Source: a phage. Taken from it: a stretch of DNA of 64,000 bases. The stretch lies in sequence record PX393108.1, one strand, 5' to 3'. The notes below the pieces were generated by a model. It worked only from the letters and a program-made list of their open reading frames with translations. It did not search any database and was not told the origin of the DNA. Positions 1,517 through 23,415 of this stretch are shown here, piece by piece. The position numbers and the translations under genes were made by a program. Positions within the stretch are counted from its first letter, which is position 1. Each line of letters begins with the position of its first letter.

Positions 1517-1545
1517 ATAATACCACAGAGGAACAGTCTTGTAAA
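1517..1545 (-). promoter_or_regulatory. T4-type early promoter (TTTACA-17-TATTAT) with conserved ATCAACT leader
   Basis: Minus-strand -35 TTTACA, 17 nt spacer, -10 TATTAT, then CCCTATCAACTACGGAGGAACAGAAAATG. Confidence 0.5.
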
Positions 1546-1548
1546 CCA

Positions 1549-1863
1549 CTAAAAGAAACTTCTTTCACAATTTTTTCCACTGAACCATGCACTCACTGCT
1601 TTCTTAGTCTCAGGAGCAGTGTTATCCATAAACCATTCAAAGGCAGCCTTTTTATGATTCTGGAGGGCTTCTCGGGCTTTAATCTGCTCACGGTCTATTA
1701 ACACTAACATATGAGCCTTTCTTGTCACCATGGGCTTCTTATGATTTTTTGAATACTCCCAGTCATTTGTCCATCGCATTGTCGTTGCGAACTGAAATAC
1801 TGCTTCTTTAATCTTAGTTTCGTAAATTTCACGAGCCTTTGAGTATAACATCACTACCTCCAT
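1549..1863 (-). CDS. hypothetical protein
   Basis: 104 aa ORF. Confidence 0.45.
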   Translation of the reverse strand: MEVVMLYSKAREIYETKIKEAVFQFATTMRWTNDWEYSKNHKKPMVTRKAHMLVLIDREQIKAREALQNHKKAAFEWFMDNTAPETKKAVSAWFSGKNCERSFF

Positions 1864-1952
1864 TCACCAGTTTAATTCTAGTCATCTTTTTAATGGCAGT
1901 CCATATAATCTATTTCTGAACTGCCTTTTTGTCATAGAAGTCCTCTTATGAA

Positions 1953-2921
1953 TTATTTCAGAAGAGTAACCTCAGCAATTTCTTCCCAACCGTTTTTGTC
2001 GGTCATAATAAAGTCAGCAAGATAAAGAGCAGTACGCAGTGAAACATTGCGTAAACGATTAACATTAACTTTCATCCATGATAATGCTTTATAAGTTTCT
2101 TCATCAGAAAGACCGCGCTTTTGCATCATGTCAGTTGAAAGAATAACATCTTCAACCCTGACCATAATTTCTTCATTAGTGTGAACACCCAAATCCAAAT
2201 AAACCGAGCGGGACACTAATGCTTGTAAATGTGGAGCAAGTTTAGTACCACGGTCTAATTCGCGGTCAATGTCAACGTTTGTGATAAAAACAATCGTTCC
2301 TTTAAATTCAAACTCACGGTCAATGCCTTTTTCTTCTAAGTAAGAAGATGCAGTGCTCCAGCAGACTTTACGGGTCTCTCCAGTGTCCAGAGCAGCTTTT
2401 AGAAGATTAAGAATGTCCATATCAGAGAAAACATCCACATCATCAATCAAAAGGACAGAATTCTCTTCACGATTATTCCAAAGCTGTTCATAAAGACCAA
2501 TACCAGAGATTTTACCATTAATGCTTTTATACTCAATGTATCCAATATCATTTGCTTTATTTAAAGCTTTATCTAAAGAATACGTTTTACCAATACCTGC
2601 TGCGCCAGAGATAATCAATGAACGAATATTTCCGTTAATAATACCATTCGTCATCATTCCCATAACATTAAATCTTTTATTAATGCGGGTTTTCATATCT
2701 TCATACGATTCTTTAACTTCCTCAACTTTTACACTATCATATGAAATATCTGATTTGTAAACCCAAACACCGCGACGTTTACCGTCAATTTCAACAAAAA
2801 CTTTACCATCTCCTTGTGCATCTACCGGAGCATTATCTGGGAACCATTCGCCTAAGAGCTCAAAAGTTCCAGAGATTTCTTTACCAAAGTAGATACCCTT
2901 ATTGATAGTTACAGTTTTCAT
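1953..2921 (-). CDS. P-loop ATPase (Walker A GAAGIGKT, Walker B LLIDDVD, sensor-like FITN), AAA-like
   Basis: 322 aa from ATG at 2919-2921 (MKTVTINKG, SD GGAGAATAAA); the longer track start at 3089 would read through a terminator hairpin. Confidence 0.7.
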   Translation of the reverse strand: MKTVTINKGIYFGKEISGTFELLGEWFPDNAPVDAQGDGKVFVEIDGKRRGVWVYKSDISYDSVKVEEVKESYEDMKTRINKRFNVMGMMTNGIINGNIRSLIISGAAGIGKTYSLDKALNKANDIGYIEYKSINGKISGIGLYEQLWNNREENSVLLIDDVDVFSDMDILNLLKAALDTGETRKVCWSTASSYLEEKGIDREFEFKGTIVFITNVDIDRELDRGTKLAPHLQALVSRSVYLDLGVHTNEEIMVRVEDVILSTDMMQKRGLSDEETYKALSWMKVNVNRLRNVSLRTALYLADFIMTDKNGWEEIAEVTLLK

Positions 2922-2955
2922 TTTATTCTCCAAATCCGTATCAGTTGATAGTTGT

Positions 2956-2984
2956 ATAGTACCATAAAGCTTTATGCTTGTAAA
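2956..2984 (-). promoter_or_regulatory. T4-type early promoter (TTTACA-17-TACTAT) driving ATPase gene
   Basis: -35 at 2979-2984, -10 at 2956-2961, conserved leader ACAACTATCAACTGATAC...GGAGAATAAAATG. Confidence 0.55.
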
Positions 2985-3008
2985 CTGTTTTGTGAAAATT
3001 TTTTGAAA

Positions 3009-3034
3009 TAAAAAAAGGGAGCCCGAAGGCTCCC
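3009..3034 (-). terminator. intrinsic terminator hairpin (GGGAGCC-CGAA-GGCTCCC + U-run) after NTase gene
   Basis: 7 bp GC stem with tetraloop followed by T-run on minus strand. Confidence 0.6.
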
Positions 3035-3036
3035 TA

Positions 3037-4050
3037 TCATTTATAATAACTTCGGTGGTTTTCAAGATAAACCCTCTCAAGGAAGTCATCCCAGAAACCC
3101 ATGTCTACTTTTTGTTGCATACCGTTCTTAGAAGCTTCAATGGATGCTGCTTCTACTTGATCGACCACATCTTCCAAAAACTCTTGAACAGTTTTAAATG
3201 GATGCTTACCCAGCTTCACGTCGAGAATAAATGGAGCGTCTTGAAGTGGATAAACTAAGTCACCGGTTTTGTAAATTTCCAATAGTTGGAGTCCACCACG
3301 ACAAGCATGACTCAGAGCTTTCCAGTCAATACCCTCATTCGCTTCAGCTTTACGAGCACGTTCACCATATTCAGCATCAAGTTTATTCAAAGACTGCTTA
3401 AGCTCAATAAGAGAAAGTGTAGTCTGATATTTACGACCCAACACAGTGTAAAACGTTTGTGGGCCTGTTTTCTCATGATTATGGAATACCCATTCGCAGA
3501 ACTCGTTTTCTGGAAGACGATGCTTAATATCTTCAACTTTAGTGCGACGAAGTCTATCAGGGATTCCTTCTTGATAGTCGACCCACTGGTCAGGGATTTG
3601 ATTAACTACTTTCAATACATCACGCAATGCGGCCAAACGAGAACCCTTGACACCATATTTAGAAGCTTGCTTGCGGACATATCCTAAATAAGATTTCATG
3701 TTAGTTGTATAAAAACGAGAACGATTGTCTTGAATAAACTTCCATACATCAGGCAAATCAGATTTAACTACCAGTTCAGGTGGAGTGTGGAGCATATCCA
3801 ATGCTACAGTTTCACCATCTGCTGCTAATTTAAAGAAATACTTAAGACTGTATAGTTCATGGTCAATATCATCTTTAGTGTTTTTAGATGATGTGTTGTT
3901 AGTGTTTTTACTCATATGCTCTTTAACATTTCCAATAAGAATATCGCGAGCAGGAGGAACAAAGATTTCTTTAAAATCTACATCAGATTCTGGAGTAGAA
4001 GTTCCATAAAGATGACTACCAAAATAGCTTTTCATTACTGTTTTCATCAT
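3037..4050 (-). CDS. Pol-beta superfamily nucleotidyltransferase (GS-x10-DVD motif) with long helical C-terminal domain
   Basis: 337 aa; N-terminal YFGSHLYGTSTPESDVDF matches hG[GS]x9-13Dh[DE]; further acidic residue in ALDMLH. Confidence 0.7.
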   Translation of the reverse strand: MMKTVMKSYFGSHLYGTSTPESDVDFKEIFVPPARDILIGNVKEHMSKNTNNTSSKNTKDDIDHELYSLKYFFKLAADGETVALDMLHTPPELVVKSDLPDVWKFIQDNRSRFYTTNMKSYLGYVRKQASKYGVKGSRLAALRDVLKVVNQIPDQWVDYQEGIPDRLRRTKVEDIKHRLPENEFCEWVFHNHEKTGPQTFYTVLGRKYQTTLSLIELKQSLNKLDAEYGERARKAEANEGIDWKALSHACRGGLQLLEIYKTGDLVYPLQDAPFILDVKLGKHPFKTVQEFLEDVVDQVEAASIEASKNGMQQKVDMGFWDDFLERVYLENHRSYYK

Positions 4051-4508
4051 TCAGCCTTATATTCAATAACAGGACATACTTTAGCTTTACGCGCTTTTAA
4101 AAATTCGACGATAATAGATTTCTTTGGTTGAATAGGAGGTAAACCTTTATACGCCCTATCAATATTTTCTACATGTAAAGCATAATCCTTTTTCCATTTA
4201 TAATCTTTATATTTTTCATGCAGTTGTGCAGGAATAACAAATGAACCAATAATAAGTAAAACAAGCAAAATAGCAAGTATAAATGCTGATGGAATAAGAG
4301 TCCATAAACTACCAAAAATAAGCCATTTCTGCATGATTTCTGCGCAGATGATAGTTAGACCTGCTAGTATAGTACATCCGAAAAAAGAAACGAAAAATGT
4401 AGGGATAACAATAGACCAAAAATATGCACACAGTGTCTTAGGTCGTTTCCATTCGTCGTTAAACATTTTGAATAATTTATAGTGCCAAGAGCTTTCATTA
4501 ATAATCAT
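4047..4508 (-). CDS. polytopic membrane protein
   Basis: 153 aa; several hydrophobic helices; ATGA overlap with downstream NTase gene. Confidence 0.55.
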   Translation of the reverse strand: MIINESSWHYKLFKMFNDEWKRPKTLCAYFWSIVIPTFFVSFFGCTILAGLTIICAEIMQKWLIFGSLWTLIPSAFILAILLVLLIIGSFVIPAQLHEKYKDYKWKKDYALHVENIDRAYKGLPPIQPKKSIIVEFLKARKAKVCPVIEYKAE

Positions 4509-4510
4509 AA

Positions 4511-5032: not shown

Positions 5033-5038
5033 ATTTCC

Positions 5039-5602: not shown

Positions 5603-5861
5603 GAATTTTTTCTAAAATTTTAGAGTATTCCTTTGTATCAGATTTACGCACAATCGATACACTATAAGGCATACTATCAGTGTCTTTTATAAAGCGTTCC
5701 AAATGACACTCTAATAAAATTTCTGGATTATAAATCGTGTACATCAAATTACCTGTTGCTCCACGATATTGGCAGATTTCTACTGATTGAGCATCATTCC
5801 ACAATTTTGTTAAGACTAAATCACCTACTTCTAATTTCGGAAAGCTCACATTATTCACCAA
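5583..5861 (-). CDS. hypothetical protein
   Basis: 92 aa ORF. Confidence 0.45.
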   Translation of the reverse strand: MVNNVSFPKLEVGDLVLTKLWNDAQSVEICQYRGATGNLMYTIYNPEILLECHLERFIKDTDSMPYSVSIVRKSDTKEYSKILEKIHANKKD

Positions 5862-5934
5862 TTAAAGTTTCAATTAATTCTCTTAACTTAAAAGCTTGTT
5901 CATTTGTCATTACATACTCCTTTGAATAATATCA

Positions 5935-5963
5935 ATAATATTGTTAACCAGATTATAAGTAAA
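5935..5963 (-). promoter_or_regulatory. T4-type early promoter (TTTACT-17-TATTAT)
   Basis: Sequence match on minus strand upstream of a 19-codon ORF and the 5583-5861 gene. Confidence 0.45.
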
Positions 5964-6042
5964 CATTGGGTAATTATATTGAATCATCACATACACAACA
6001 AACAAAACTTTCATTCTCTTCTCCTTGGCAGTTGACAAGATT

Positions 6043-6071
6043 ACTATACCATAACCTTGCCAACTTGTAAA
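6043..6071 (-). promoter_or_regulatory. sigma70-like early promoter (TTTACA-17-TATAGT)
   Basis: Sequence match on minus strand in a 200 nt non-coding gap. Confidence 0.4.
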
Positions 6072-6074
6072 CCA

Positions 6075-6221
6075 TTAAATGACGTTTTCAATAAAATTCT
6101 GAAGCTTTGTGTGAGCATCAACCATGATTTTCATTTCTTCCTTTGCGAAAGCTGTACCTCTTTCTCGAGCAGAATACTCATAGTCAGAAACTGCATTAGC
6201 ATATTCTTCAATTAGTTTCAT
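6075..6221 (-). CDS. small hypothetical protein (48 aa)
   Basis: ATG-initiated 48-codon ORF MKLIEEYANAVSDYEYSARERG...; below track size cut-off. Confidence 0.3.
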   Translation of the reverse strand: MKLIEEYANAVSDYEYSARERGTAFAKEEMKIMVDAHTKLQNFIENVI

Positions 6222-6237: not shown

Positions 6238-6432
6238 TCAGTTTTCATTATTCCACCTAATCATTTCAAGATATTGAACTAACTTAGCTTTGGATTTATC
6301 CAAATCCTTTTTAGCTGCTTCTATACCATCGTATGAATATCCTTCACAATGCTCAACTGCCAATTGGTATGAATCTATTTCAATATCACGTGCTAATTTA
6401 ATGATTTTTTCAAACTGTTCACGTGTTAGCAT
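6238..6432 (-). CDS. hypothetical protein
   Basis: 64 aa ORF. Confidence 0.4.
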   Translation of the reverse strand: MLTREQFEKIIKLARDIEIDSYQLAVEHCEGYSYDGIEAAKKDLDKSKAKLVQYLEMIRWNNEN

Positions 6433-6434
6433 AC

Positions 6435-6638: not shown

Positions 6639-6826
6639 TATTCCACCACATATGAAAGAGAGAATATTGCACACGCCATATGAGTTGCAGCTTCATCACA
6701 CATATCATAACGTTTCTTAAGAAGTTTTTCAAGTTCTTCACTGGTAACTTCATCCATGTCGACGAAAAAATCGCCATTAATGATGACGTAGATATTTCCT
6801 TCTTGATTGAGTGCTTCAATTTTCAT
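6638..6826 (-). CDS. hypothetical protein (start [10 protein letters not shown])
   Basis: Preceded by early-promoter cassette and SD AAGAGGAGAA. Confidence 0.45.
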
Positions 6827-6854
6827 GATGTTCTCCTCTTTATCTGATGGTTGT

Positions 6855-6883
6855 ATAGTATCACAGCTCAAATGGAAAGTAAA
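6855..6883 (-). promoter_or_regulatory. T4-type early promoter (TTTACT-17-TACTAT)
   Basis: Conserved cassette with ACAACCATCAG leader. Confidence 0.5.
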
Positions 6884-6894
6884 CCGGTAAAATG

Positions 6895-6916
6895 AAAAAA
6901 GTCTCCCGAAGGAGAC
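6895..6916 (-). terminator. intrinsic terminator hairpin (GTCTCC-CGAA-GGAGAC + U-run) after rI.-1
   Basis: GC hairpin followed by T-run on minus strand. Confidence 0.55.
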
Positions 6917-6921
6917 TAATG

Positions 6922-10185: not shown

Positions 10186-10647
10186 TCATTGAGTTTTAAT
10201 TACTGCTTTAGAAGCCTTTCCCGGTAAACGACGACTATTGATAATTGCCATCCTGCACTGAAGTGACGGGTCTTTGAACTTCGCATTAGGTTTACAAACT
10301 GTAAATCCAAGCCAAAGATTTCCATCTGTGATTTCTAAACGCCCAGGACGATATTCAACCCCATCAATAAAATCCTCGTCAATGTCAGGACGCGGAGGCA
10401 TACTCAGGAATTCATTAACTTCTAAAACATGGTCTTTTATTTTATGGAATAATTCAAAAACATATGTCTCATCAATCTCCCGTTGAATTGCACGATCAAG
10501 AAGATGCTGAGAATATTTTAGATGAAACGATGAGACCCCTGCTGCTTTTGATGCCTCACGAATCTCATTGTTAATTTGACGAAACTCCGACTCAAAGTGA
10601 CGACGGAGCTTATTTCGACGGATAAAAACTTCTGTGTTGATAGTCAT
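10186..10647 (-). CDS. regB: RegB site-specific endoribonuclease
   Basis: 153 aa; matches recalled T4 RegB sequence and size; preceded by early promoter. Confidence 0.8.
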   Translation of the reverse strand: MTINTEVFIRRNKLRRHFESEFRQINNEIREASKAAGVSSFHLKYSQHLLDRAIQREIDETYVFELFHKIKDHVLEVNEFLSMPPRPDIDEDFIDGVEYRPGRLEITDGNLWLGFTVCKPNAKFKDPSLQCRMAIINSRRLPGKASKAVIKTQ

Positions 10648-10674
10648 GTTATTCTCCTCTTAACTGATAGAAAA

Positions 10675-10703
10675 ATTATACCACAGTCAAGAGGAAAAGT
10701 AAA
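10675..10703 (-). promoter_or_regulatory. T4-type early promoter (TTTACT-17-TATAAT) for regB
   Basis: -10 TATAAT at 10675-10680, -35 at 10698-10703, SD AAGAGGAGAATAAC. Confidence 0.55.
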
Positions 10704-10706
10704 CAG

Positions 10707-10985
10707 TTATTCTTTAAATCTAATCAATTTATTCATAGACTTTGTAACTTCTGCACGAACCTCATGTAGGTTTTTGAGCTGTTCAAGACGTTGCTCATAG
10801 TAAGCAATTTCATCTTCTTCGAGACAGTCCTGTGAATCTTCTTTAAGATAACGTGCATAGTCCTGGAAAGCTTTACGGACTACTTCCTGGAAGTCATCAA
10901 GACTTTGAATTTTCTTAGGAGCAACAGATACACGACGAGGGGCAGTATAATACTCATAACCAAACCCTGCGCTTAATTGAGCCAT
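10707..10985 (-). CDS. hypothetical protein (start [13 protein letters not shown])
   Basis: 92 aa from internal ATG overlapping upstream stop. Confidence 0.45.
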
Positions 10986-13316: not shown

Positions 13317-13330
13317 GTGTATCCTTTAAT

Positions 13331-13648: not shown

Positions 13649-13657
13649 ATGTTTCCT

Positions 13658-14074
13658 TTAAATGTAAATATTTTTGCCGTAATACTTGTACCAGTGTGGC
13701 TTTATTAAAATTTTTTCATCGAGTCGTTGTTGACTCAATTTAATAGCTGATTTGCATGGATTATAATCATTTTTCCATTCTGCTGGAATATCGCTGATGT
13801 CGGGAACTTCAGTATCTTTTATACTAAACCCACGTTTTAAGCATTCCGTTATAATGTCTGATTGACGCTTTCGCAAAAATTCTAACTTATCGTAAAAGAA
13901 CGTAACATGACCAGAACCTAAAATAAACTCGGAAGATATTTTAAAATCTTTAACCCGCTTACCATTTGCCACGTGTTTACGAACTATACCAAAAACACGT
14001 GGCAATTCACGGTATTCTGCGATTAAATGCTGATCAGCAAGTTCAGATACTAAAGTCAAATTAATACGAGTCAT
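13658..14074 (-). CDS. denV: endonuclease V (pyrimidine-dimer DNA glycosylase)
   Basis: 138 aa; [17 protein letters not shown]...WYKYYGK matches recalled T4 DenV. Confidence 0.9.
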
Positions 14075-14099
14075 TTTATCCCTCCAAGTAACTGTGAAT

Positions 14100-14128
14100 A
14101 TACTATCACAGTTTTAGGAGAAAGTAAA
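14100..14128 (-). promoter_or_regulatory. T4-type early promoter (TTTACT-17-TAGTAT) for denV
   Basis: Conserved cassette upstream of denV start. Confidence 0.5.
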
Positions 14129-14133
14129 CAACT

Positions 14134-14664
<531 letters not shown>

Positions 14665-15120
14665 TTAAAAGAGGCTGTTCATTATTCGGTAAAGTGAAGG
14701 ACCCATCACATATTGCCACTGAGTACGAGGAATAAGAGCAAAAGCATCCATCTCTGGAATCATAACGCCATCTTTATTTTCAAAATAAGACTCACAACGG
14801 CAATTTCTGAACATCTCATGCTCTACTGGAATCGTATAATAAAATAACTGTAAGTCTTTATTACTAGAATATTTAAATACACCTAGGTCTTCTAGAAGGT
14901 CTGGATTATAATTGTTAAAACCAGTCTCTTCTGAGCATTCTCTTCGTGCTGCATCTAATGCGCTTAAATCAGAATTTTCTACACGCCCCTTTGGAATATC
15001 CCAGCGATGTGCCATCATTCCAGGCTTACGAGAACCAGTAACTCGTCCCATAAATAAATCTTTATCTTCTGTCATAAAGATAATACCAGCTGATAATGTT
15101 TTCATTTTAATTTCCTGCAT
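14665..15120 (-). CDS. nudE: Nudix hydrolase NudE
   Basis: 151 aa; Nudix box GRVENSDLSALDAARRECSEETGF; downstream of e as in T4; alternative start at 15105. Confidence 0.85.
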   Translation of the reverse strand: MQEIKMKTLSAGIIFMTEDKDLFMGRVTGSRKPGMMAHRWDIPKGRVENSDLSALDAARRECSEETGFNNYNPDLLEDLGVFKYSSNKDLQLFYYTIPVEHEMFRNCRCESYFENKDGVMIPEMDAFALIPRTQWQYVMGPSLYRIMNSLF

Positions 15121-16938: not shown

Positions 16939-17532
16939 TTATTTCAGAGAATTAATGTATTCCTGAACATCGGCAGAGGTAGTTTCAACCCCGGAAATAT
17001 TACCGTTAAAGGTTTCAACTCGAGCAAGGGTATCTTCAATATCAACCTTAGTCAGTGCTGCAATTTCAACTACATCATCGGCAGTACTAATTCCAAGAGC
17101 ATTTGCCGCACGAGTTTCACGGATATATTCCAATTTAACCGCAAGTTCTTGGCGAGCATCATCTAACTCAACTACTTTCTTGGCGATTTCAATTCGCATT
17201 TCAGCATAACCGTCAGCTTTAGTAGTCAACTGCTCAGCTGTTCGACGATATAGCAAACCGAGTTTAGCATGCATTGTTACATCTTGACCTTCGGAAAGAA
17301 GTTTACGAATTTCACGCTCTTTTGATTCGGCCTGTCGATTCTTTTCGATAACAAGTTCACGAATACGTTTTTCTTCATTAATAGATTTAATAGAAGCAGT
17401 TTTTAGATCTTTAATTTTATCAAGTAATTTTGCTGCTGCAGCAGTATACTGTTCTTCGACAGATAGATTTTTAGCCATAGCAGAACCAAGTTTAGTGCGA
17501 ATAAACTCAACAATTTTCTTCAGTGTGTTCAT
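16939..17532 (-). CDS. coiled-coil protein (possibly PspA/IM30-like, speculative)
   Basis: 197 aa, strongly helical heptad-like composition; preceded by perfect early promoter. Confidence 0.5.
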
Positions 17533-17574
17533 AGTATTTCCTTAGGTTAATTGAGATTTAAAATCCGTTGGAGT

Positions 17575-17603
17575 ATTATATCTTGTTCTCCGAGGGATGT
17601 AAA
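17575..17603 (-). promoter_or_regulatory. T4-type early promoter (TTTACA-17-TATAAT)
   Basis: Perfect -10 TATAAT, 17 nt spacer, -35 TTTACA. Confidence 0.55.
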
Positions 17604-17607
17604 CATG

Positions 17608-18006
17608 CTATTTCATTTTTGCGAGACAGATTTCGTTGGCTTCCCATTGAGCTTGCTTAATAATAGCTTTGGATACAGGAACCTTTTGACCATAAGTTTT
17701 TGATGTTGAGAGAACAATATATTTGTTTGCCTCATTATGCCAACCCCATGATTTTTCACCATGAGTACCTTTAACTACAGCTGACACCTCAACAGAACAA
17801 CCATCAGCTCCAATCTTGGTATCCACAATCCATTCATTTCTCTCGGCAGCTTCATTTTCCGACCTCATTTTTTCTTCATACACGGCGGCCCAATCAGTTT
17901 TTGTCAAGCTTAAACTAAGAGCTTTCTCTAATTCTTTGGCAGCTTTTTGTTGTTCGGGTGTTAATGAATTATATAACTCTCGCATTTCTTTATCTTCAAT
18001 ATTCAT
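17608..18006 (-). CDS. hypothetical protein
   Basis: 132 aa ORF. Confidence 0.5.
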   Translation of the reverse strand: MNIEDKEMRELYNSLTPEQQKAAKELEKALSLSLTKTDWAAVYEEKMRSENEAAERNEWIVDTKIGADGCSVEVSAVVKGTHGEKSWGWHNEANKYIVLSTSKTYGQKVPVSKAIIKQAQWEANEICLAKMK

Positions 18007-18061
18007 TATGTTCTCCTCAAGTTACAGGCTCATAATATCTCAATCATGAGCCTGTGTAAAC

Positions 18062-18325
18062 TTATTTCATATTATTGAAATATTCTTCTGCGATTTCGTC
18101 GTTATCATGGTAAACTTTAGAAGACAGTTTAACATAACCTTCTGCTGTAAACATGTTAATCACAACCTTTACAGTATACCACTGACCATCTTCATTACCC
18201 ATTACTGCGTAAGTTTCAAACATCGGATGATCAGGACCGATAACTTTAATATCATTCACTGTACGACCGAAATCTTCTGAAACACATTTCATAAAGAAGT
18301 TGAACAGTTCGCCGTAATTATCCAT
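18062..18325 (-). CDS. hypothetical protein (start MDNYGELF)
   Basis: 87 aa from ATG with SD GGAGAATAAA; the longer track ORF would overlap its own promoter. Confidence 0.5.
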   Translation of the reverse strand: MDNYGELFNFFMKCVSEDFGRTVNDIKVIGPDHPMFETYAVMGNEDGQWYTVKVVINMFTAEGYVKLSSKVYHDNDEIAEEYFNNMK

Positions 18326-18368
18326 TTTATTCTCCAAGTTGTTTTCTGTATCAGTAGTTGATATTGAT

Positions 18369-18397
18369 ATAGTACCACGGAAGAACATGGATGTAAA
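18369..18397 (-). promoter_or_regulatory. T4-type early promoter (TTTACA-17-TACTAT)
   Basis: Conserved cassette with ATCAATATCAACTACTGATAC leader. Confidence 0.5.
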
Positions 18398-18564
18398 CAG
18401 TTTTGTGAAAAAAATTTTAAAAAGTTTTAGGGAATTCTAGGGCAGGGAGGGGCAATTAAAGGATAGGATAATATATTATAAAGGGTAGAAACTAAATGAT
18501 GCCTAGAGAGGTCCAGAAAGGCCTAGATACCAAAAAGCCCTATCATTTAGATAGGGATTTAAAA

Positions 18565-19128
18565 TTATTTATCTAGTTTAGTTATTATAGCTTCTGCGGC
18601 AGCTTTTAGCTTAGATGCAGTGTTAATACGATTTTTAATTTCAGTATACGCATCGCCAAGAACATCAAGGCTATCAGAATAAACACTTACACTATTGCGT
18701 TCGCTATTTGAAATAGAACCTTTAGTTTTACGATCAAAATCGGTGTACACGTCTTGAAGATCACGGGCTGCCTTCTTTGCATCATCCAATGCATCAAGAG
18801 CTTTATTCAAAGCATTAACGTATTTTTTAGTGTCGAACATATTCTTAGAAATTTTAACAGGTGCGCGTTCAGGAGTAGCTAATGCAGATTTAGGAACCTG
18901 AGCGCCAGATGCCAATTTCTTAGAAATTTTGAAAAACGCTTTATTGAATTTATTTTCTTGACTCATCGTAAAAGAACTATTATCGATGTTGTACATTTCA
19001 ATAGCTTTAGCTTTCCACTTAAGAAAATCGCCGCGGTCTTTTGGGTCCAAGTGGAAGAATACTTTAGTAAGATCTGCTTCAGATGGTAATTTTGCTGCTT
19101 CGGTTAAAAATTCGGCATAGGTTTTCAT
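18565..19128 (-). CDS. internal-protein-like capsid-targeted protein (CTS MKTYAEFLTE)
   Basis: 187 aa; N-terminal CTS motif. Confidence 0.6.
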   Translation of the reverse strand: MKTYAEFLTEAAKLPSEADLTKVFFHLDPKDRGDFLKWKAKAIEMYNIDNSSFTMSQENKFNKAFFKISKKLASGAQVPKSALATPERAPVKISKNMFDTKKYVNALNKALDALDDAKKAARDLQDVYTDFDRKTKGSISNSERNSVSVYSDSLDVLGDAYTEIKNRINTASKLKAAAEAIITKLDK

Positions 19129-19216
19129 TTAAAATCCTTGAAATAATTTATCGGTTGGTTATTAATTATTTATTACTTTGTTATTATCCGTAACAGCATT
19201 CTCTATGTGATTCAAA

Positions 19217-19248
19217 CTAAAAACCCCAACCTTTCGGTCGGGGCTAAG
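19217..19248 (-). terminator. intrinsic terminator, copy 1 of a 32 nt direct repeat
   Basis: Minus-strand hairpin CCCCGACC-GAAA-GGTTGGGG followed by TTTTT. Confidence 0.6.
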
Positions 19249-19727: not shown

Positions 19728-19766
19728 CTTATTTCCTGTTTTAATTCGTGATTTAATATACTACTA

Positions 19767-19774: not shown

Positions 19775-19807
19775 CTAAAAAGCCCCAACCTTTCGGTCGG
19801 GGCTAAG
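19774..19807 (-). terminator. intrinsic terminator, copy 2 of the 32 nt direct repeat
   Basis: Same hairpin plus U-run as 19217-19248, one extra G. Confidence 0.6.
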
Positions 19808-19809
19808 CC

Positions 19810-20110: not shown

Positions 20111-20115
20111 GTTTC

Positions 20116-20466: not shown

Positions 20467-20472
20467 ATTTTC

Positions 20473-20548
20473 CTCACTTATAATTGGTCGAGGCAGTAGG
20501 GATCGAACCTACGACCTAGGACTTAGAAGGTCCTTGCTCTTCCTTCTG
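20473..20548 (-). tRNA. tRNA-Arg (anticodon UCU)
   Basis: Cloverleaf folded by hand: anticodon loop CTTCTAA, T-arm GTAGG-TTCGATC-CCTAC, CCA encoded. Confidence 0.85.
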
Positions 20549-20552
20549 AGCT

Positions 20553-20628
20553 ATGCCCCGTAATTGGGGTGACCGATGGGAGTCGAACCCATGACTACGA
20601 GAATCACAATCTCGAGTTCTACCAACTG
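20553..20628 (-). tRNA. tRNA-His (anticodon GUG), discriminator C73, no encoded G-1
   Basis: Anticodon stem-loop CGAGATTGTGATTCTCG; 3' end CCACCCCA like E. coli tRNA-His. Confidence 0.8.
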
Positions 20629-20753
20629 AACTACGGCCACATTAATACCTACTCCAACAATCAAGATGTCTTCACACGAAATTAAGAGAAGAGTGATCAG
20701 TTCAACCCTATAATCGCGTCAAGTAGATATTAATGTGACAGTTGTCACAAATT

Positions 20754-20828
20754 TGGCGGACGTGATAGGATTCGAACCTATAACCAATCGCTTAACAGGC
20801 GATCGCTCTGCCATTGAGCTACACATCC
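20754..20828 (-). tRNA. tRNA-Asn (anticodon GUU)
   Basis: Anticodon loop CTGTTAA; T-arm ATAGG-TTCGAAT-CCTAT; CCA encoded. Confidence 0.8.
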
Positions 20829-20832
20829 AAAT

Positions 20833-20919
20833 TGGTGGGGAGTGATGGAGTCGAACCACCCGAGTCGCAATGACAATGGATTTACAGTCCACACCGCTAC
20901 CTCTACGGGATAACTCCCC
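20833..20919 (-). tRNA. tRNA-Tyr (anticodon GUA), long variable arm
   Basis: 87 nt; anticodon loop CTGTAAA; discriminator A; CCA encoded. Confidence 0.8.
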
Positions 20920-20932
20920 TTAATTCTTAATT

Positions 20933-21007
20933 TGGTGGCCCTGGGTGGAATTGAACCACCATCTGGCGATTATGAGTCGCTTGCTTGAACCTTCCAGCTA
21001 CAGGGCC
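20933..21007 (-). tRNA. tRNA-Ile (anticodon CAU, Ile2/lysidine type; Met not excluded)
   Basis: Anticodon arm GCGACTCATAATCGC identical to E. coli tRNA-Ile2 as recalled; CCA encoded. Confidence 0.75.
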
Positions 21008-21008
21008 T

Positions 21009-21085
21009 TGGTGCTGATTGACGGAATCGAACCGCCGACCTTCTCATTACAAGTGAGTTGCTCTACCTACTGAGCTAAATCAGCA
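21009..21085 (-). tRNA. tRNA-Thr (anticodon UGU)
   Basis: Anticodon loop CTTGTAA; perfect 7 bp acceptor stem; 1 nt from Ile tRNA. Confidence 0.85.
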
Positions 21086-21089
21086 AAAC

Positions 21090-21179
21090 TGGCGGAGGCG
21101 ATAGGATTTGAACCTATGAGTCGCCGGAGCGACTGCCGGTTTTCAAGACCGGTGCATTAAACCACTCTGCCACGCCTCC
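21090..21179 (-). tRNA. tRNA-Ser (anticodon UGA), type II
   Basis: 90 nt; anticodon loop TCTTGAAAA region; long variable arm. Confidence 0.85.
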
Positions 21180-21181
21180 AG

Positions 21182-21255
21182 TCTCCATACAAGGATTTGA
21201 ACCTTGGACCTCCTGATCCCAAATCAGGCGCTCTACCAAACTGAGCTACACGGAG
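21182..21255 (-). tRNA. tRNA-Pro (anticodon UGG), CCA not encoded
   Basis: Anticodon loop TTTGGGA; 3' end lacks CCA; 2 nt from tRNA-Ser. Confidence 0.8.
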
Positions 21256-21265
21256 TAAATTAAAT

Positions 21266-21339
<74 letters not shown>

Positions 21340-21344
21340 AAATT

Positions 21345-21431
21345 TGGTGCGAGAAGTGGGACTCGAACCCACAAGGAAATCATTCCGCAGCATTTTAAGT
21401 GCTGTGCCTTTACCAATTTGACCATTCTCGC
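21345..21431 (-). tRNA. tRNA-Leu (anticodon UAA), type II
   Basis: 87 nt; anticodon loop CTTAAAA; long variable arm. Confidence 0.85.
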
Positions 21432-21432
21432 G

Positions 21433-21505
21433 CTGGGAATAAAGGACTCGAACCTTTGCATCCTGGAATCAAAATCCAGTGCCTTACCAACTTGGCTAAT
21501 TCCCA
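21433..21505 (-). tRNA. tRNA-Gln (anticodon UUG), starts with U1, CCA not fully encoded
   Basis: Anticodon loop TTTTGAT; abuts tRNA-Leu as a dimeric precursor. Confidence 0.85.
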
Positions 21506-21591
21506 ATTATTAACAAAGGCTCTCAGGAAAGAACCCTTGATGATAGAGGGTATTAATCAATGCGATATGAGTTAATAATAACAAATAATTC

Positions 21592-22116: not shown

Positions 22117-22400
22117 GCTGCATTAATGTAAGTATATTTAATACATTCAAGATCTAAAGGATTCTTGAAAATATCATATTCAAGAGGACCTTTTTCCGTT
22201 TCAATAAAGAAATCAAAGTTAACTGTGTTAAATTTACGGTCTTCCTTCACTAATTTAACTTGAGAAGATGAACGGTCAATGTAAACCTTTTCAACTTCAA
22301 AATATGTTAAAATGCCATAATCATTAATCAAGGCTTTAGCCGCGTCTTGATCATATTTATATCCATTTTCAATGGACGATACTTTCGCATAAAGAATCAT
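22113..22400 (-). CDS. hypothetical protein
   Basis: 95 aa ORF, ATGA overlap. Confidence 0.5.
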   Translation of the reverse strand: MILYAKVSSIENGYKYDQDAAKALINDYGILTYFEVEKVYIDRSSSQVKLVKEDRKFNTVNFDFFIETEKGPLEYDIFKNPLDLECIKYTYINAA

Positions 22401-22402
22401 TA

Positions 22403-22807
22403 TTAACCTTTATCAACAATAGTATGAGTATGGGCATTTACAATTTGCCACCAGTCGAAACTATCGCCAAATCGTTTTGATTTATTGTCTTCAATAATTT
22501 GGCGTAATTCATCTTCTGTTTCAGCATACGCAATCAAATCATCATATCCACCGCAAGGATAGTAATTATCGCCTGCGAACAAAAGAAAATTTACTTTAGA
22601 TGGGTCTACATAATAATGCTCTTTAGGATATTTAGTTCCTTTCCAATCAGTTACTTCAACATAACGGTAAGAAAATCCATTTTTACTTTCAACCCAACTC
22701 CACGCTTCAAAAGGAGTATTAAAAACTTTATCAGGTATTAAATTACCTTCAAAATGAGAAGGATTTGCATAATCCCCAGCATAAACATAGTATTCGTTAA
22801 TACTCAT
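22403..22807 (-). CDS. hypothetical protein
   Basis: 134 aa ORF. Confidence 0.5.
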   Translation of the reverse strand: MSINEYYVYAGDYANPSHFEGNLIPDKVFNTPFEAWSWVESKNGFSYRYVEVTDWKGTKYPKEHYYVDPSKVNFLLFAGDNYYPCGGYDDLIAYAETEDELRQIIEDNKSKRFGDSFDWWQIVNAHTHTIVDKG

Positions 22808-22993
22808 CTATTCACCTTTAGAAATTTTATCCATAACAATAGCGATTAAACCAATTAAAAATGCTACTACAAGTGAAAACACATTTTCTGCTGTAGTTAA
22901 TAATCCACATATAAATCCAACAAACATTGAAAAACTAAAAGCAGAAGCAGAAATTGCAATAGCAACATTTCGAATTAATTCACAACGTTTCAT
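22808..22993 (-). CDS. small single-pass membrane protein
   Basis: 61 aa, almost entirely hydrophobic; preceded by early promoter. Confidence 0.5.
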   Translation of the reverse strand: MKRCELIRNVAIAISASAFSFSMFVGFICGLLTTAENVFSLVVAFLIGLIAIVMDKISKGE

Positions 22994-23021
22994 TTTATTC
23001 TCCTCGGTAGTTGATAGGGTA

Positions 23022-23050
23022 ATAGTATCACAACTAAAACCCTATGTAAA
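23022..23050 (-). promoter_or_regulatory. T4-type early promoter (TTTACA-17-TACTAT)
   Basis: Conserved cassette; near-identical to the copy at 23387-23415. Confidence 0.5.
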
Positions 23051-23069
23051 CAACTTTGTGAAATATTTA

Positions 23070-23357
23070 TTACAAAAGATTTTTAGCAATAATCTTGAGA
23101 TGTGCCGCAGAAATGTGTTTAGCTTTAAACAACGCAGTTTCTTCAGCAGGAGAGATAATGATTGTAGCACCATCCTTTTTAGCAGACCACCCATCACCTA
23201 GGTAAACAGTACCTTTGATTTCTTCGCCATCAACCAAACTAATCATTGGTTTACCTTCTCGTCCTTTATTTGCTTTAATAACTTCAGAAGTAAGAGTAGC
23301 TTCAGTAATAGTAGAAACCGGGGTAGTTTTTGTAGTAAACTCTTTGAAAGTTTTCAT
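23070..23357 (-). CDS. internal protein I-like capsid-targeted protein (CTS MKTFKEF...ITE)
   Basis: 95 aa; CTS-like N-terminus; position upstream of 57B corresponds to ipI in T4. Confidence 0.6.
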   Translation of the reverse strand: MKTFKEFTTKTTPVSTITEATLTSEVIKANKGREGKPMISLVDGEEIKGTVYLGDGWSAKKDGATIIISPAEETALFKAKHISAAHLKIIAKNLL

Positions 23358-23386
23358 TTTATTTTCCTAATTAATTTTGATGAGAT

Positions 23387-23415
23387 AATAGTATCACTAC
23401 CTCATCAACGTGTAA
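23387..23415 (-). promoter_or_regulatory. T4-type early promoter (TTTACA-17-TACTAT)
   Basis: Conserved cassette. Confidence 0.5.

Follow-up and report, generated by a model that had tools for sequence, protein, structure and literature searches.

T4-type early promoter cassettes upstream of eleven early genes of a Tequatrovirus, about half of them with a hairpin around the promoter

A short arrangement of GTTTAC(A/T), 17 nt, TA(C/T)TAT, a leader, GGAG(A/G)A, and ATG recurs near one gene after another in a 64,000-nt stretch of phage DNA (PX393108.1; the whole stretch is called the window here). An earlier note had listed eleven copies and likened them to shuffling cassettes of T4-type phages that bound exchangeable gene modules. 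This raises the question of whether the repeats are promoters, recombination linkers, or both. The window is 95 to 97% identical at the nucleotide level to many Tequatrovirus genomes (sequenced T4-like coliphages) and, judged by its sequence, is a Tequatrovirus. Its first 24 kb (1-24 kb) form an early region, coded on the minus strand and running from nrdC.8 to ipI/57B, in which the gene order is collinear with nrdC.8...ipI/57B of T4. The repeats are well-known strong T4-type early promoters with ribosome-binding leaders, located upstream of eleven early genes. It is very probable that they are sigma-70-dependent T4-like early promoters, each joined to its own early gene's leader and ribosome-binding site. 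Such cassettes are ordinary within the T4-like group and already known; a hairpin around half of them has been little discussed so far.

Early promoter cassettes and their anatomy

The pattern GTTTACW-N17-TAYTAT has eight exact matches in the window against 0.01 expected (at least eight were reached in 0 of 100 shuffles) and, with one mismatch permitted, 14 against 2.8 expected. We built a motif from the copies, as the earlier note had advised, and the weight-matrix scan of the window returned 12 strong sites of at least 17 bits, all on the minus strand of the early region between 1.5 and 23.4 kb, while 24-64 kb contained none. In an independent repeat search, the cassette ranked first among the direct-repeat families of the window. 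Eleven of the 12 sites are credible, including one at 18032-18061 that had been missed, and the copy at 5935 is doubtful. The arrangement is found at all eleven positions listed previously, though it reads along the minus strand; the listed positions mark the plus-strand low end of the 30-nt block from -35 to -10, and 23387 should read 23388. The cassette sites all lie on the coding strand, directly 5' of ORFs, and are kept at orthologous places in 10 relatives, with T4 positional orthologs for all eleven credible cassettes (Table 1). In the ASO78A record, eight sites in the stretch, of which seven have an orthologous cassette in the window, are annotated as early promoters ([quoted passage not shown]); the mobD.5 promoter is among the T4-type early promoters of that annotation. 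Promoter activity of the window cassettes is predicted from orthology and consensus, and we found no global T4 start-site map in the literature. As a check of register, the T4 -35 G at 133331 predicts a +1 at 133295, and the GenBank name of this T4 promoter is Pe133295.

Table 1. Positions and elements of the cassettes, the doubtful copy, and the two upstream terminators (start sites are predicted; energies in kcal/mol).
Feature	Span	Strand	UP-like	-35	-10	+1	Leader, SD, or other sequence	ATG	Hairpin arms	Energy	z	T4 ortholog
nrdC.8 early promoter cassette	1486..1571	-		GTTTACA 1546-1540	TGg+TATTAT, hexamer 1522-1517	A 1510	leader ATCAACTAC; SD GGAGGA 1501-1496	1488	1536-1522 / 1506-1492, SD enclosed	-23.2	-5.6	-35 G at 53943
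nrdC.10 early promoter cassette	2919..3010	-	TTTTCACAAAACA	2985-2979	TACTAT 2961-2956	2949	leader ATCAACTGATACGG; SD within perfect RegB 11-mer GGAGAATAAAA at 2931-2921	2921	none embedded on folding			55384
intrinsic terminator, 30 nt 5' of nrdC.10 -35 (upstream PeSL-type stem-loop)	3016..3035	-					AGGGAGCC-TTCG-GGCTCCCT then T7				-3.4	
doubtful copy, entirely within mobD.2 coding sequence	5907..5964	-		GTTTACT	TATTAT (after N17)							
mobD.2 early promoter cassette	6012..6097	-		6072-6066	TATAGT 6048-6043	6036	SD AAGGAG	6014	6065-6051 / 6044-6030	-19.0	-4.3	57990
mobD.5 early promoter cassette	6824..6899	-		6884-6878	TACTAT 6860-6855	6848	SD GAGGAG	6826				58780
intrinsic terminator, 15 nt 5' of mobD.5 -35	6900..6917	-					AGTCTCC-TTCG-GGAGACT then T6					
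regB early promoter cassette	10645..10729	-		10704-10698	TATAAT 10680-10675	10668	SD GGAG 10657-10654	10647	10698-10681 / 10670-10652, SD enclosed	-22.4	-5.8	
denV early promoter cassette	14072..14154	-		14129-14123	TAGTAT 14105-14100, in hairpin loop	14093	SD GGAGGG	14074	inner 14113-14106 / 14097-14090; outer 14123-14117 / 14085-14079, pairs with SD	-18.8	-4.2	
e.6 early promoter cassette	17530..17629	-		17604-17598	TATAAT 17580-17575, TGn absent	17568	36-nt leader; SD AAGGA	17532	none significant on folding			
e.7-variant gene early promoter cassette	18004..18086	-		18061-18055	TATTAT 18037-18032	18025	SD GAGGAG	18006	18055-18043 / 18036-18024	-20.0	-4.6	
e.8 early promoter cassette	18323..18423	-	TTTTTTTCACAAAACT	18398-18392	TACTAT 18374-18369	18362	37-nt leader ATCAACTACTGATACAG...; perfect RegB 11-mer GGAGAATAAAA	18325				70696
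trna.4 early promoter cassette	22991..23076	-	ATTTCACAAAGTT	23051-23045	TACTAT 23027-23022	23015	leader CTATCAACTAC; RegB 11-mer GGAGAATAAAA	22993	23045-23039 / 23020-23014, weak	-14.2	-2.1	
ipI early promoter cassette	23355..23442	-	ATTTCACAAAGTT	23417-23411	TACTAT 23393-23388	23381	SD TAGGAAAA	23357	23408-23395 / 23390-23377	-15.5	-4.2	73939

A typical cassette fills one entire intergenic gap of 55 to 76 nt. The e.8 gap measures 239 nt, two gaps are lengthened by a terminator 5' of the promoter, and the e.7-variant -35 begins immediately 3' of the e.8 stop codon. From its 5' end, the cassette consists of an A/T-rich UP-like stretch (TTTCACAAA(A/G)NN in four copies), the -35 element GTTTAC(A/T) at -36..-30, a spacer of nonconserved sequence, an extended -10 of TGn plus TA(Y/N)(T/A)AT, a predicted start at an A seven bases past the -10 (often within CT-A-TCAAC), a leader of 19 to 37 nt, and a GGAG Shine-Dalgarno (SD) 6 to 9 nt upstream of the ATG, at its best in the form GGAGAATAAAA, which in published work is the optimal site for RegB/S1 cleavage. 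The uniform layout described previously is real, but not every element occurs in every copy. TAYTAT is exact in seven of the 11 credible copies (TATAGT, TATAAT, TAGTAT, and TATAAT in the rest), GGAG(A/G)A is found in 8 of the 12 sites, ATCA at +1 in seven copies, and exact CTATCAAC in three. Conservation is position-specific (UP, -35, TGn/-10, +1, SD), and spacer cores are 30% identical between copies, which equals background. Near-identity over more than 40 nt, also claimed, was not found: the best 40-nt stretch anywhere in the window reaches 85% (1546 versus 23051), and the longest exact runs common to window copies are 18 to 20 nt. For the pair given as an example (23022/23387), the 30-nt core is 70% identical in register and 17% as written, and the best 40 nt reach 78%.

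T4 has about 40 early promoters (Pe) with the consensus GTTTAC(N14)gtggTAttaT (Miller et al. 2003), a class named "UP/-35/TGn/-10" promoters (Hinton 2010), for which GTTTAC at -36..-31, the UP element, and TGn have been described (PMC1524935; PMC2988021). The window cassettes share with them this -35 position, the 17-nt spacing, TGn with a TAttaT-type -10, the A/T-rich upstream region, and the position and orientation ahead of early genes. We see no essential difference: the window, which comes from a close T4 relative, has the same promoters. The nrdC.8 -10 reads TATTAT in the window and TACTAT in T4, and the e-proximal promoter is followed by denV in the window and by ipIII in T4.

By its sequence, GGAG(A/G)A is the consensus published for cleavage by RegB/S1 (GGAGRAYARAA, optimum GGAGAAUAAAA; Durand et al. 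2006; Uzan & Miller 2010; PMC1702504; PMC3014915). The exact optimal 11-mer is present in 3 of the 11 cassettes, regB and other cassettes are one or two mismatches away from it, and GGAG is absent from two of the eleven (e.6 and ipI). In T4, the nrdC.8 and regB GGAGs are cut in vivo (PMC1702504; PMC3014915), and regB is preceded by a typical early promoter, its own SD being cut by RegB (PMC3014915). Like the T4 targets, the window sites are intergenic, at the SD position, and on early transcripts. By analogy with T4, host RNA polymerase would fire the very strong early promoters right after infection, and the early mRNAs would be translated until RegB cut within GGAG and early expression ended.

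Cassettes and the exchange of gene modules

Repeats of this type are known as PeSLs, first described for RB49/phi1 (Arbiol et al. 2010, PMC2839356) and extended to PST/T4, with the consensus TTTACW-N17-TAYWAT, and to nt-1/KVP40 (Comeau, Arbiol & Krisch 2014, PMC4122927). The window motif fits both this PST/T4 consensus and the classical T4 early-promoter consensus. The link made earlier to reported shuffling cassettes is therefore right in substance, although the name stands for "promoter-early stem-loop" and not "stop". Like PeSLs, the window cassettes are composite intergenic units of AT-rich region, early promoter, stem-loop, SD, and ATG that adjoin variable ORFs, contain crossovers, and have the internal-protein (IP) loci as their showcase.

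We compared breakpoints and synteny between the window and 14 relatives. Of five multi-allelic slots, four have cassettes at their boundaries (e.7, ipI-side IP, nrdC.10/nrdC.11, and IP/denV), homology switches fall within cassettes and not beside them, and the cassettes, which make up 5.6% of the sequence, contain 9 of 43 breakpoint clusters (p=5e-4 versus a uniform model). The nrdC.10 cassette is an insertion hot spot at which 8 phages carry 6 variants. The e.6 cassette bounds the e.7 swap slot on the left, its leader being kept among relatives while the -35/spacer halves differ; the denV cassette is the right-hand boundary of the IP/denV slot, and the trna.4 cassette is the left boundary of the IP slot, with 6 relatives breaking at 23011-23068. 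Between trna.4 and 57B, the cassette+ip modules number one in the window, T4, and G8, two in KAW1E185 and W143, and four in VEc74. In T4, five promoter pairs have a near-identical spacer core in common (0.016 expected), and mosaics combine the same leader with different spacers (5 pairs) or the same spacer with different leaders (4 pairs); the e.8 leader belongs to a family common to T4 27080, 163673, and 167086. These data in part show the cassettes to be dispersed, partly paralogous modules. Because cassette halves are found recombined, they plausibly serve at times as short homology patches for gene-module swaps, which is the published PeSL idea, but as linkers they are not preferential in this sample of 14 relatives.

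Indeed, breakpoints occur at 7 of 12 cassette junctions and at 24 of 50 cassette-less gene junctions, which is no excess (Fisher p=0.75; 14 of 38 cassette-less junctions and p=0.31 with tRNA junctions removed), and this sets the window apart from PeSLs. The cassettes at 1546, 6072, 6884, and 10704 contain no breakpoint among the 14 relatives. Many indels end at promoter-less gene starts, conserved internal-protein gene 5' ends, tRNA genes, or a repeated terminator, and promoter-less microhomologies mediate indels too, such as the 2178-nt G8/HY03 deletion. Together with the position-specific conservation and the background-level spacers, this is consistent with the cassettes being promoters alone, alike through selection for polymerase binding and RegB-controlled translation, with no special part in shuffling and with breakpoints overlapping them merely because viable indels respect gene boundaries. 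We regard this as possible but somewhat doubtful, since the switches lie inside and not next to cassettes, the five dispersed T4 pairs have near-identical spacers that are functionally unconstrained as well as reassorted halves, slots are cassette-bounded and tandem arrays of cassette and IP gene vary in number, and experiments in RB49/phi1 demonstrated PeSL mini-circles (PMC2839356). Because breakpoints are no commoner at cassettes, four cassettes are unbroken, and indels occur elsewhere, we consider the cassettes to be foremost promoters that may sometimes act as homology patches. The proposal that they mark module boundaries thus holds for the four slots and for the crossovers inside cassettes, but not as an excess of breakage or for the four unbroken cassettes.

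Conserved linkers have been reported for T-even IP loci (Repoila et al. 1994, as cited by Arbiol et al. 2010). As with these, Botstein-type modular linkers, and morons, variable IP genes of the window lie between conserved flanks, and as at the IP loci, tandem cassette+ip modules vary in number. Set against the linkers as cited there, the window has two kinds, the early-promoter cassette and the conserved ip 5' coding end.

Hairpins embedded in the cassettes

A stem-loop is present at 8 or 9 of the 11 cassettes, comprising two upstream intrinsic terminators and six or seven hairpins around the -10. In six of the eleven, the promoter spacer can base-pair with the leader or SD, which places the -10 in the loop. 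Strand folding of six cassettes gave z values of -4.2 to -5.8, while five of the 11 folded without a significant embedded hairpin. Spacer/leader duplexes averaged -12.6 kcal/mol with their own partner and -7.7 with cross-partners (permutation p<5e-5), and 17 T4 promoters without an ortholog among the window cassettes showed the own-partner effect again (p=5e-5). A z of -3 or lower was found at 6 of 11 cassette gene starts and at 1 of 42 gene starts without a cassette (Fisher p=1.3e-4), this one being the textbook gene e hairpin. Compensatory arm changes are seen in orthologs and in three regB lineages. They include AATTGTGA/TCACAATT of denV in T4, the e.7-variant arms (CAGGCTCA/TGAGCCTG in the window, TAGGCT.A/TGAGCCTA in T4, TGGGCTCA/TGAGCCCA in ECO78), and those of the mobD.2 paralog at T4 20612; the regB hairpin is retained in two diverged regB lineages despite different arm sequences, and the T4 ortholog of the ipI hairpin has a perfect 10-bp stem. 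In three cases, the SD itself is the 3' arm. In sequence and structure, the spacer-leader hairpin is a second layer of the cassettes, for which we infer a function below.

In PST/T4 PeSLs, stem-loops are drawn just 5' of the promoter, a place occupied in the window at only 2 of 11 cassettes, by true terminators, whereas the six or seven other stem-loops use the promoter spacer as 5' arm and the leader/SD as 3' arm. This geometry is nearer to the RB49 classes, in which stem-loops lie between -35 and -10 or overlap the -10 (PMC2839356), but the window stems are AT-richer and cassette-specific. Across cassettes, hairpin presence and breakpoint presence do not correspond.

Such a hairpin would form only on read-through transcripts from upstream, as transcripts from the cassette's own promoter would lack the 5' arm. 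The T4 leader hairpins with an internal promoter (e, soc, 49, and I-TevI) likewise have their 5' arm upstream of the internal start. Because the 5' arm precedes this start, long transcripts would hide the SD and internal-promoter transcripts would not. In those T4 cases, however, the internal promoters are late and serve to delay translation, while in the window the internal promoter is of the early sigma-70 type and supplies, with its own spacer, the 5' arm of a hairpin of predicted function. The 2010 review does not list the window type of case. In contrast to T4 RegB/S1 targets, the GGAG of three window cassettes is predicted to be paired on read-through transcripts, and in published data pairing shields GGAG from RegB.

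The hairpins might instead be the main point of the repeats, as attenuators or terminators that insulate genes from upstream transcription and not as switches of translation or RegB access. Terminator-like activity was measured for one PeSL stem-loop (Arbiol 2010, PMC2839356), and energies of -15 to -23 kcal/mol make the window hairpins stable. However, a U-tract follows none of the six embedded hairpins, the sequence past the 3' arm being A-rich (AAAAUG, AAUAACAUG), and the terminator function of RB49 PeSLs can therefore not be assumed here. In addition, the upstream hairpins at 3035-3016 and 6917-6900 are the only ones picked up by the terminator scan, and an SD serving as 3' arm fits the translational masking of e, soc, 49, and I-TevI. 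We thus consider insulation rather unlikely and favor early promoters whose hairpins would act on translation or RegB access.

Other origins of the repeats and the copy at 5935

A dedicated mobile element (a site-specific recombinase or miniature transposon), in place of promoters recombining by general homology, is very improbable. Dispersed near-identical copies exist in T4, and Arbiol 2010 speculated on a helper protein (PMC2839356), but the copies lack terminal inverted repeats and target-site duplications, crossovers fall at different points of the cassette (SD/ATG, +1, -35), most spacers are unrelated, and no recombinase accompanies the copies, the nearby homing endonucleases acting elsewhere (tRNA region, mobD). 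It is hardly conceivable that the sites match by chance or are promoters of another class (MotA-dependent middle, gp55 late); for 11 of the 12 this is refuted by their counts, coding-strand position directly 5' of ORFs, and conservation in 10 relatives, and every cassette lacks both a MotA box at -30 (GCTT at -30..-27) and the late-promoter TATAAATA.

The copy at 5935 alone behaves like a chance match. At 17.2 bits, it is the weakest of the 12 weight-matrix sites, it lacks a UP element, TGn, and the conserved leader, and it was not called in any relative compared. Its -10, TATTAT, reads CATTAT in T4, ECO78, PD112, HY01, KAW1E185, and W143. Because this -10 arises from a window-specific C-to-T change, and given its location in coding sequence and its chance-like match, the copy is doubtful as a genuine early promoter. 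A 19-codon remnant ORF lies downstream of it.

Identity of the repeated cassettes

Megablast matched window positions 1-24000 to 1198 phage records. The best of these, with 91-95% query cover and 95-97% identity, were all Tequatrovirus (T4-like coliphages and Shigella phages); about 350 genomes of this genus span the region. The early stretch is collinear with T4 (AF158101) from nrdC.7 to gene 1, and all of its genes lie on the minus strand. Within it, the earlier note had described eleven copies of a promoter and leader arrangement, here called cassettes (early promoter, leader, SD and ATG) and numbered by the G of their -35 element. The arrangement is real at the positions cited: GTTTACW-N17-TAYTAT had 8 exact matches against 0.01 expected, which rules out chance matches, and 14 against 2.8 expected with one mismatch allowed. 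In an independent direct-repeat search, the cassette was the top-ranked direct-repeat family. The scan with a motif built from the copies, suggested in the same note, was performed with a two-block weight matrix, and sites of at least 17 bits were kept. It returned 12 sites, all on the minus strand and with identical spacing, and none at or above 17 bits in 24-64 kb.

Positions of the cassettes and of other features in the window. The -35 G positions were obtained with the weight matrix; embedded hairpins are predictions for each cassette folded from -35 to ATG
Feature	Position	Strand	Predicted +1	T4 ortholog (-35 G)	Embedded hairpin or remark
nrdC.8 cassette	1546	minus	1510	53943	-23.2 kcal/mol, z -5.6
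nrdC.10 cassette	2985	minus	2949	55384	
mobD.2, doubtful copy	5964	minus			
mobD.2 cassette	6072	minus	6036	57990	-19.0 kcal/mol, z -4.3
mobD.5 cassette	6884	minus	6848	58780	
regB cassette	10704	minus	10668	62797	-22.4 kcal/mol, z -5.8
denV cassette	14129	minus	14093	66498	-18.8 kcal/mol, z -4.2
e.6 cassette	17604	minus	17568	69967	
e.7-variant cassette	18061	minus	18025	70359	-20.0 kcal/mol, z -4.6
e.8 cassette	18398	minus	18362	70696	
trna.4 cassette	23051	minus	23015	73572	weak, z -2.1
ipI cassette	23417	minus	23381	73939	-15.5 kcal/mol, z -4.2
Intrinsic terminator upstream of cassette 2985	3035-3016	minus			U-tract
Intrinsic terminator upstream of cassette 6884	6917-6900	minus			U-tract
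11-tRNA cluster	20485-21505	minus			
ip-type 5' ends	13282-13329, 13614-13661, 19094-19141, 23277-23310				
nrdC.10/nrdC.11 junction	cassette 2985				6 variants in 8 phages
IP/denV slot	ends at cassette 14129				at least 10 variants
e.7 slot	cassettes 17604-18061				7 variants in 8 phages
IP slot	cassettes 23051-23417				5 variants in 6 phages

The coordinates first assigned to the copies are the low ends, in plus-strand numbering, of the 30-nt block from -35 to -10, but the motif lies on the minus strand, and the copy placed at 23387 belongs at 23388. Ten of the eleven listed copies are credible; 18032-18061 had been overlooked, and 5935-5964 is doubtful as an early promoter on sequence grounds. 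This copy lies wholly within the mobD.2 reading frame, has no upstream A/T block, TGn or conserved leader, and carries a -10 that reads TATTAT here and CATTAT in six relatives including T4; none of the relatives scanned at this place scores as a promoter site. The further claim of near-identity between copies over >40 nt fails within the window. The best pair (1546/23051) reaches 85%, and the pair given as an example shows 70% identity over the core once in register and 78% over the best 40 nt. The longest exact runs between window copies are 18-20 nt, and the 14-nt spacer cores have a mean identity of 30%, equal to background. Conservation is position-specific, falling on the upstream block, the -35, the TGn/-10, the start region, and the SD. 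In T4, near-identity between certain early-promoter modules (27080, 55384, 146875, 163673, and 167086 among others) extends much further than in any window pair. Those at 55384 and 146875 have in common 22/25 compared upstream bases, the -35, the -10, 14/14 spacer-core bases, and the first 9 leader bases; those at 27080 and 167086 have 30/30 leader bases in common and unrelated spacers.

Judged by their sequence, the cassettes are T4 early promoters together with their leaders. The T4 early consensus comprises GTTTAC at -36..-31, an A-rich UP element near -42, a GT-rich/TGn stretch, and a TAttaT-type -10 (PMC1524935; PMC2988021). The -35 GTTTAC(A/T) is exact at -36..-30 in all 11 credible cassettes. 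The -10 is spaced uniformly in all copies, 17 nt from the TTTACW hexamer (18 nt from GTTTAC); it reads TAYTAT in seven cassettes, TATAAT in two, and TATAGT and TAGTAT in one each, and is preceded by TGn (gtgg/gtga) in 9/11. Upstream AT content is 58-82% (38 nt, about -40 to -3 from the -35 G, roughly -76 to -39 from +1), and TTTCACAAA(A/G)NN stands immediately 5' of the -35 in four copies. The cassettes are co-oriented with the genes on the coding (minus) strand, and a leader of 19-37 nt is followed by the SD and ATG. The distance from the upstream stop codon to the -35 is 0-4 nt in 6/11, and in 8/11 a single cassette exactly fills the 55-76 nt intergenic gap. The GenBank record of ASO78A annotates eight sites here as early promoters ([quoted passage not shown]), seven of which are orthologous to window cassettes. 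The T4 GenBank record has no promoter features; positional orthologs exist in T4 for all 11 credible cassettes.

The register was checked in T4, where the -35 G at 133331, found by scanning the genome, predicts a +1 at 133295, and the T4 record names Pe133295. The predicted window starts follow from this match; the +1 base is A in 9/11 cassettes, and ATCA stands at the start in 7/11. The leader first described as CTATCAACT, which covers -2 to +7, occurs exactly, as CTATCAAC, in 3 copies and partially in others. Middle (MotA) and late (gp55) promoter classes are ruled out, as neither motif is found in any cassette. With respect to the MotA box (a/t)(a/t)(a/t)TGCTTtA centred at -30, no cassette has GCTT at -30..-27, the sole GCTT among them being at -21 in cassette 2985. 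The gp55 motif TATAAATA is absent at -13..-6 from all cassettes and is found where expected, for example before gene e (14649 and 14662).

The element GGAG(A/G)A preceding the ATG in the earlier description matches the consensus of the published RegB/S1 target. RegB cleaves early mRNAs in GGAG, with strong sites GGAGRAYARAA and a T4 optimum of GGAGAAUAAAA, and the regB and nrdC.8 sites are cleaved in vivo (PMC1702504; PMC3014915). The optimum GGAGAATAAAA is exact at the predicted sites of cassettes 2985, 18398, and 23051; the regB cassette carries GGAGAATAACA as its predicted RegB site, and cassettes 6884 and 18061 have GGAGAACAT.. at theirs. Among the 11 cassettes, GGAG is absent at 17604 (e.6) and 23417 (ipI).

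The earlier note had also likened the cassettes to those held to mediate modular shuffling. This pointed to the right literature, that on promoter-early stem-loops (PeSLs) in RB49/phi1 (Arbiol 2010, PMC2839356) and PST/T4 (Comeau 2014, PMC4122927), but under a wrong name ("early-stop" for stem-loop). The window motif matches the PST/T4 consensus TTTACW-N17-TAYWAT (PMC4122927), and the PeSL composite of AT-rich upstream sequence, strong sigma-70-type early promoter, SD, and ATG in one intergenic cassette is also the window layout. The position of the stem-loop as drawn for PST mostly differs from that in the window cassettes. The cassettes are thus already known on three levels: as T4 early promoters, through RegB-sensitive SDs, and as T4/PST PeSL-type cassettes. 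Their description amounts to a rediscovery of T4 early promoters and of the PeSL idea and adds little. It is of practical use for correct annotation of promoters, start sites, and RegB sites in this phage, and for phage engineering and comparative annotation through the mapping of freely exchangeable slots (e.7, the two IP slots, and nrdC.10/nrdC.11).

Gene e contains in its 3' part, 109 nt 5' of cassette 14129, a conserved sigma-70-like site, GTTAACT-N17-TGG-TATAAT (14209-14238, minus strand, 16.9 bits). This possible weaker internal promoter was found in up to 9/10 annotated relatives scanned and was not called there in ECO78, W143, and G8. Between a hairpin at 18556-18538 and the e.8 promoter, the 80 nt that precede this promoter (18399-18478, minus strand) contain no ORF; they are C/U-rich on the transcribed strand and predicted to be fully unstructured (MFE 0).

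Spacer-leader hairpins

A stem-loop within or adjoining the promoter was found in 8-9 of the 11 cassettes. Stem-loops upstream of the promoter are ruled out as a general cassette feature, occurring in 2/11 only (2985 and 6884). In the six strong embedded hairpins, the promoter spacer forms the 5' arm and the leader the 3' arm, the -10 occupies the loop or the stem top, and GGAG is within the stem in 1546, 10704, and 14129. Early promoters predicted to lie in this way inside a hairpin, between a spacer arm and a leader/SD arm, make up a large share, 6/11 in the window and about 10/28 in T4. Folding of cassettes 17604 and 18398 gave no stem-loop. No U-tract follows the embedded hairpins; only the two upstream hairpins have one. 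Rfam contained no family for the cassette hairpins and detected only the 11 tRNAs.

Base composition as the cause of the hairpins was ruled out in three ways. The mean spacer/leader duplex energy was -12.6 kcal/mol with the own partner versus -7.7 kcal/mol with mismatched partners (permutation p<5e-5). In T4, 17 early promoters not orthologous to any window cassette showed the own-partner effect again (p=5e-5). Last, among 53 gene starts in the window, z<=-3 was reached by 6/11 with a cassette versus 1/42 others (Fisher p=1.3e-4). The sole cassette-less start that folds far better than its shuffles is that of gene e (14628-14690, minus strand, z -3.3), whose leader contains the late-promoter TATAAATA motifs at 14649 and 14662. 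A leader hairpin with late promoters inside it is the textbook case of translation masking for this gene (2010 review), and its recovery serves as a positive control for the hairpin scan.

The two arms also co-vary. At the e.7 promoter they read CAGGCTCA/TGAGCCTG in the window, TAGGCT.A/TGAGCCTA in T4, and TGGGCTCA/TGAGCCCA in ECO78; at the denV-side promoter they read AACTGTGA/TCACAGTT in the window and AATTGTGA/TCACAATT in T4. The SD-containing hairpin of the regB promoter is kept in three diverged lineages with differing arm sequences (CCTCTTGACTG/CAGTTAAGAGG; CCTCTAGTTG/CAACTAGAGG; CTCCTGTAAG/CTTACAGGAG). RNAalifold on a MAFFT alignment of these lineages gave 13 pairs, 3 of them compensatory. 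Because the stems were slightly misaligned, each lineage was also folded alone, which yielded -14.5 to -22.6 kcal/mol and z -3.0 to -6.1. IMG/VR provided 11 loci in a RegB search and 3 with a stem-agnostic e.7-promoter pattern, a set too thin for covariation. This co-varying and statistically robust pairing of promoter spacer and leader/SD may be the sole element that goes beyond the literature consulted, and the spacer-leader hairpin is the one part of potentially greater weight.

Own-promoter transcripts cannot form the hairpin, because its 5' arm precedes the predicted start; only read-through RNA can. There, the hairpin would mask the SD. It would also mask the RegB site, since RNA structure protects against RegB (PMC3014915). 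A general switch, by which an early gene would be translated and exposed to RegB mainly from own-promoter transcripts, is a tentative proposal that we hold to be possible but somewhat improbable. With its predicted hairpins, the window would present the early-promoter counterpart of e, soc, 49, and I-TevI, where a late promoter lies inside the hairpin; the 2010 review contains late-promoter hairpin cases only. In RB49 and phi1, PeSL stem-loops are between the -35 and -10 or overlap the -10 and were interpreted as terminators (PMC2839356). If the switch exists, it would extend the paradigm of the internal late promoter to early sigma-70 promoters, and the stem-loop of PeSLs would gain a function at the RNA level, instead of or besides termination and recombination. 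It would also account for the conservation of a supposedly free promoter spacer together with its gene and, if own-promoter and read-through transcripts are truly separated, for the individual control of dense, overlapping early genes.

Breakpoints, allelic slots, and recombined cassettes

Synteny breakpoints were derived from chained blastn alignments of window positions 1-26000 with 14 Tequatrovirus relatives (T4, ECO78, HY01, KAW1E185, ASO78A, PD112, VEc74, W143, G8, HY03, and four IMG/VR genomes), counting events of at least 60 nt. Gene junctions held 33 of the 43 breakpoint clusters. Cassette junctions cover 5.6% of the sequence and held 9/43 (binomial p=5e-4 under a uniform model), with no excess over other gene junctions (7/12 versus 24/50, Fisher p=0.75), also when tRNA junctions were left out (7/12 versus 14/38, p=0.31). 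Cassettes 1546, 6072, 6884, and 10704 had no breakpoint in any of the 14 relatives. The presence of a hairpin showed no association with that of a breakpoint. The link between cassettes and breakpoints had been overstated.

Counting alleles rather than hits gives a picture more favourable to the cassettes. Slot by slot, 4/5 multi-allelic slots have a cassette boundary, which upholds in part the proposal that cassettes bound exchangeable modules; the fifth slot is the tRNA cluster with homing endonucleases. The indels that lack a cassette have essentially two alleles each; these are tk.1, a 367-nt small-gene pair, a 522-nt ORF, and a 315-nt insert. The window cluster contains 11 tRNA genes (Arg, His, Asn, Tyr, Met, Thr, Ser, Pro, Gly, Leu, and Gln) versus 8 in T4; in relatives, tRNA genes are gained or lost and homing-endonuclease genes occur between them, giving 8 structural variants in 9 phages.

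Homology switch points fall inside the cassettes. In ASO78A, PD112, and HY03, the nrdC.10 promoter of the window (spacer agcataaagctttatgg) continues beyond CTATCAA into a different leader and gene, and their nrdC.10 has acquired another promoter. The e.6 leader is constant and is combined with four different -35/spacer halves across phages. Between trna.4 and 57B, one to four tandem cassette+ip modules are present in relatives and one in the window and T4. Across the T4 genome, five dispersed promoter pairs have 11-14 of 14 spacer-core bases in common (0.016 expected). In five pairs the leader is shared and the spacers are unrelated; in four the reverse holds. Promoter halves and leader halves thus appear to be reassorted paralogous modules, which agrees, as far as sequence comparison goes, with the PeSL proposal (PMC2839356; PMC4122927). 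A transposon-like element is ruled out, given that there are no terminal repeats and the joints are variable.

A preference for cassettes over other short homologies does not follow from this reassortment, and other linkers were found. Breakpoints at 13279-13329, 13616-13663, and 23323-23336 fall on the conserved 5' ends of ip genes. These ends (start region and first ~12 codons, MKTY.EF..EA-like) form a second repeat family, and the ORF at 18565-19128, which has one, looks from its sequence like a further internal-protein gene. Another linker is a 30-nt intrinsic-terminator hairpin (AGCCCCGACC-GAAA-GGTTGGGG and a T-run), present in two 97%-identical copies (19219-19248 and 19778-19807, minus strand) that flank a 559-nt module. 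As six relatives have a breakpoint at 19216-19219, the repeated terminator serves as a promoter-less linker. Last, G8 and HY03 lack 2178 nt between similar promoter-less gene starts at 4037-4060 and 6239-6262 (minus strand; GGCTGAATGATGAAAACAG and GGTGGAATAATGAAAACTG), which shows that ~19 nt of imperfect gene-start homology suffice for a deletion.

The segment 5583-5909 is an insert, absent from T4 and nine other relatives. The ORF starting at ATG 5910 (5851-5910, minus strand) is a 19-codon remnant, MTNEQAFKLRELIETLIGE and stop, of a 61-aa PD112 protein (locus L006, 7834-8019), with 42 codons lost between two "..IET" repeats.
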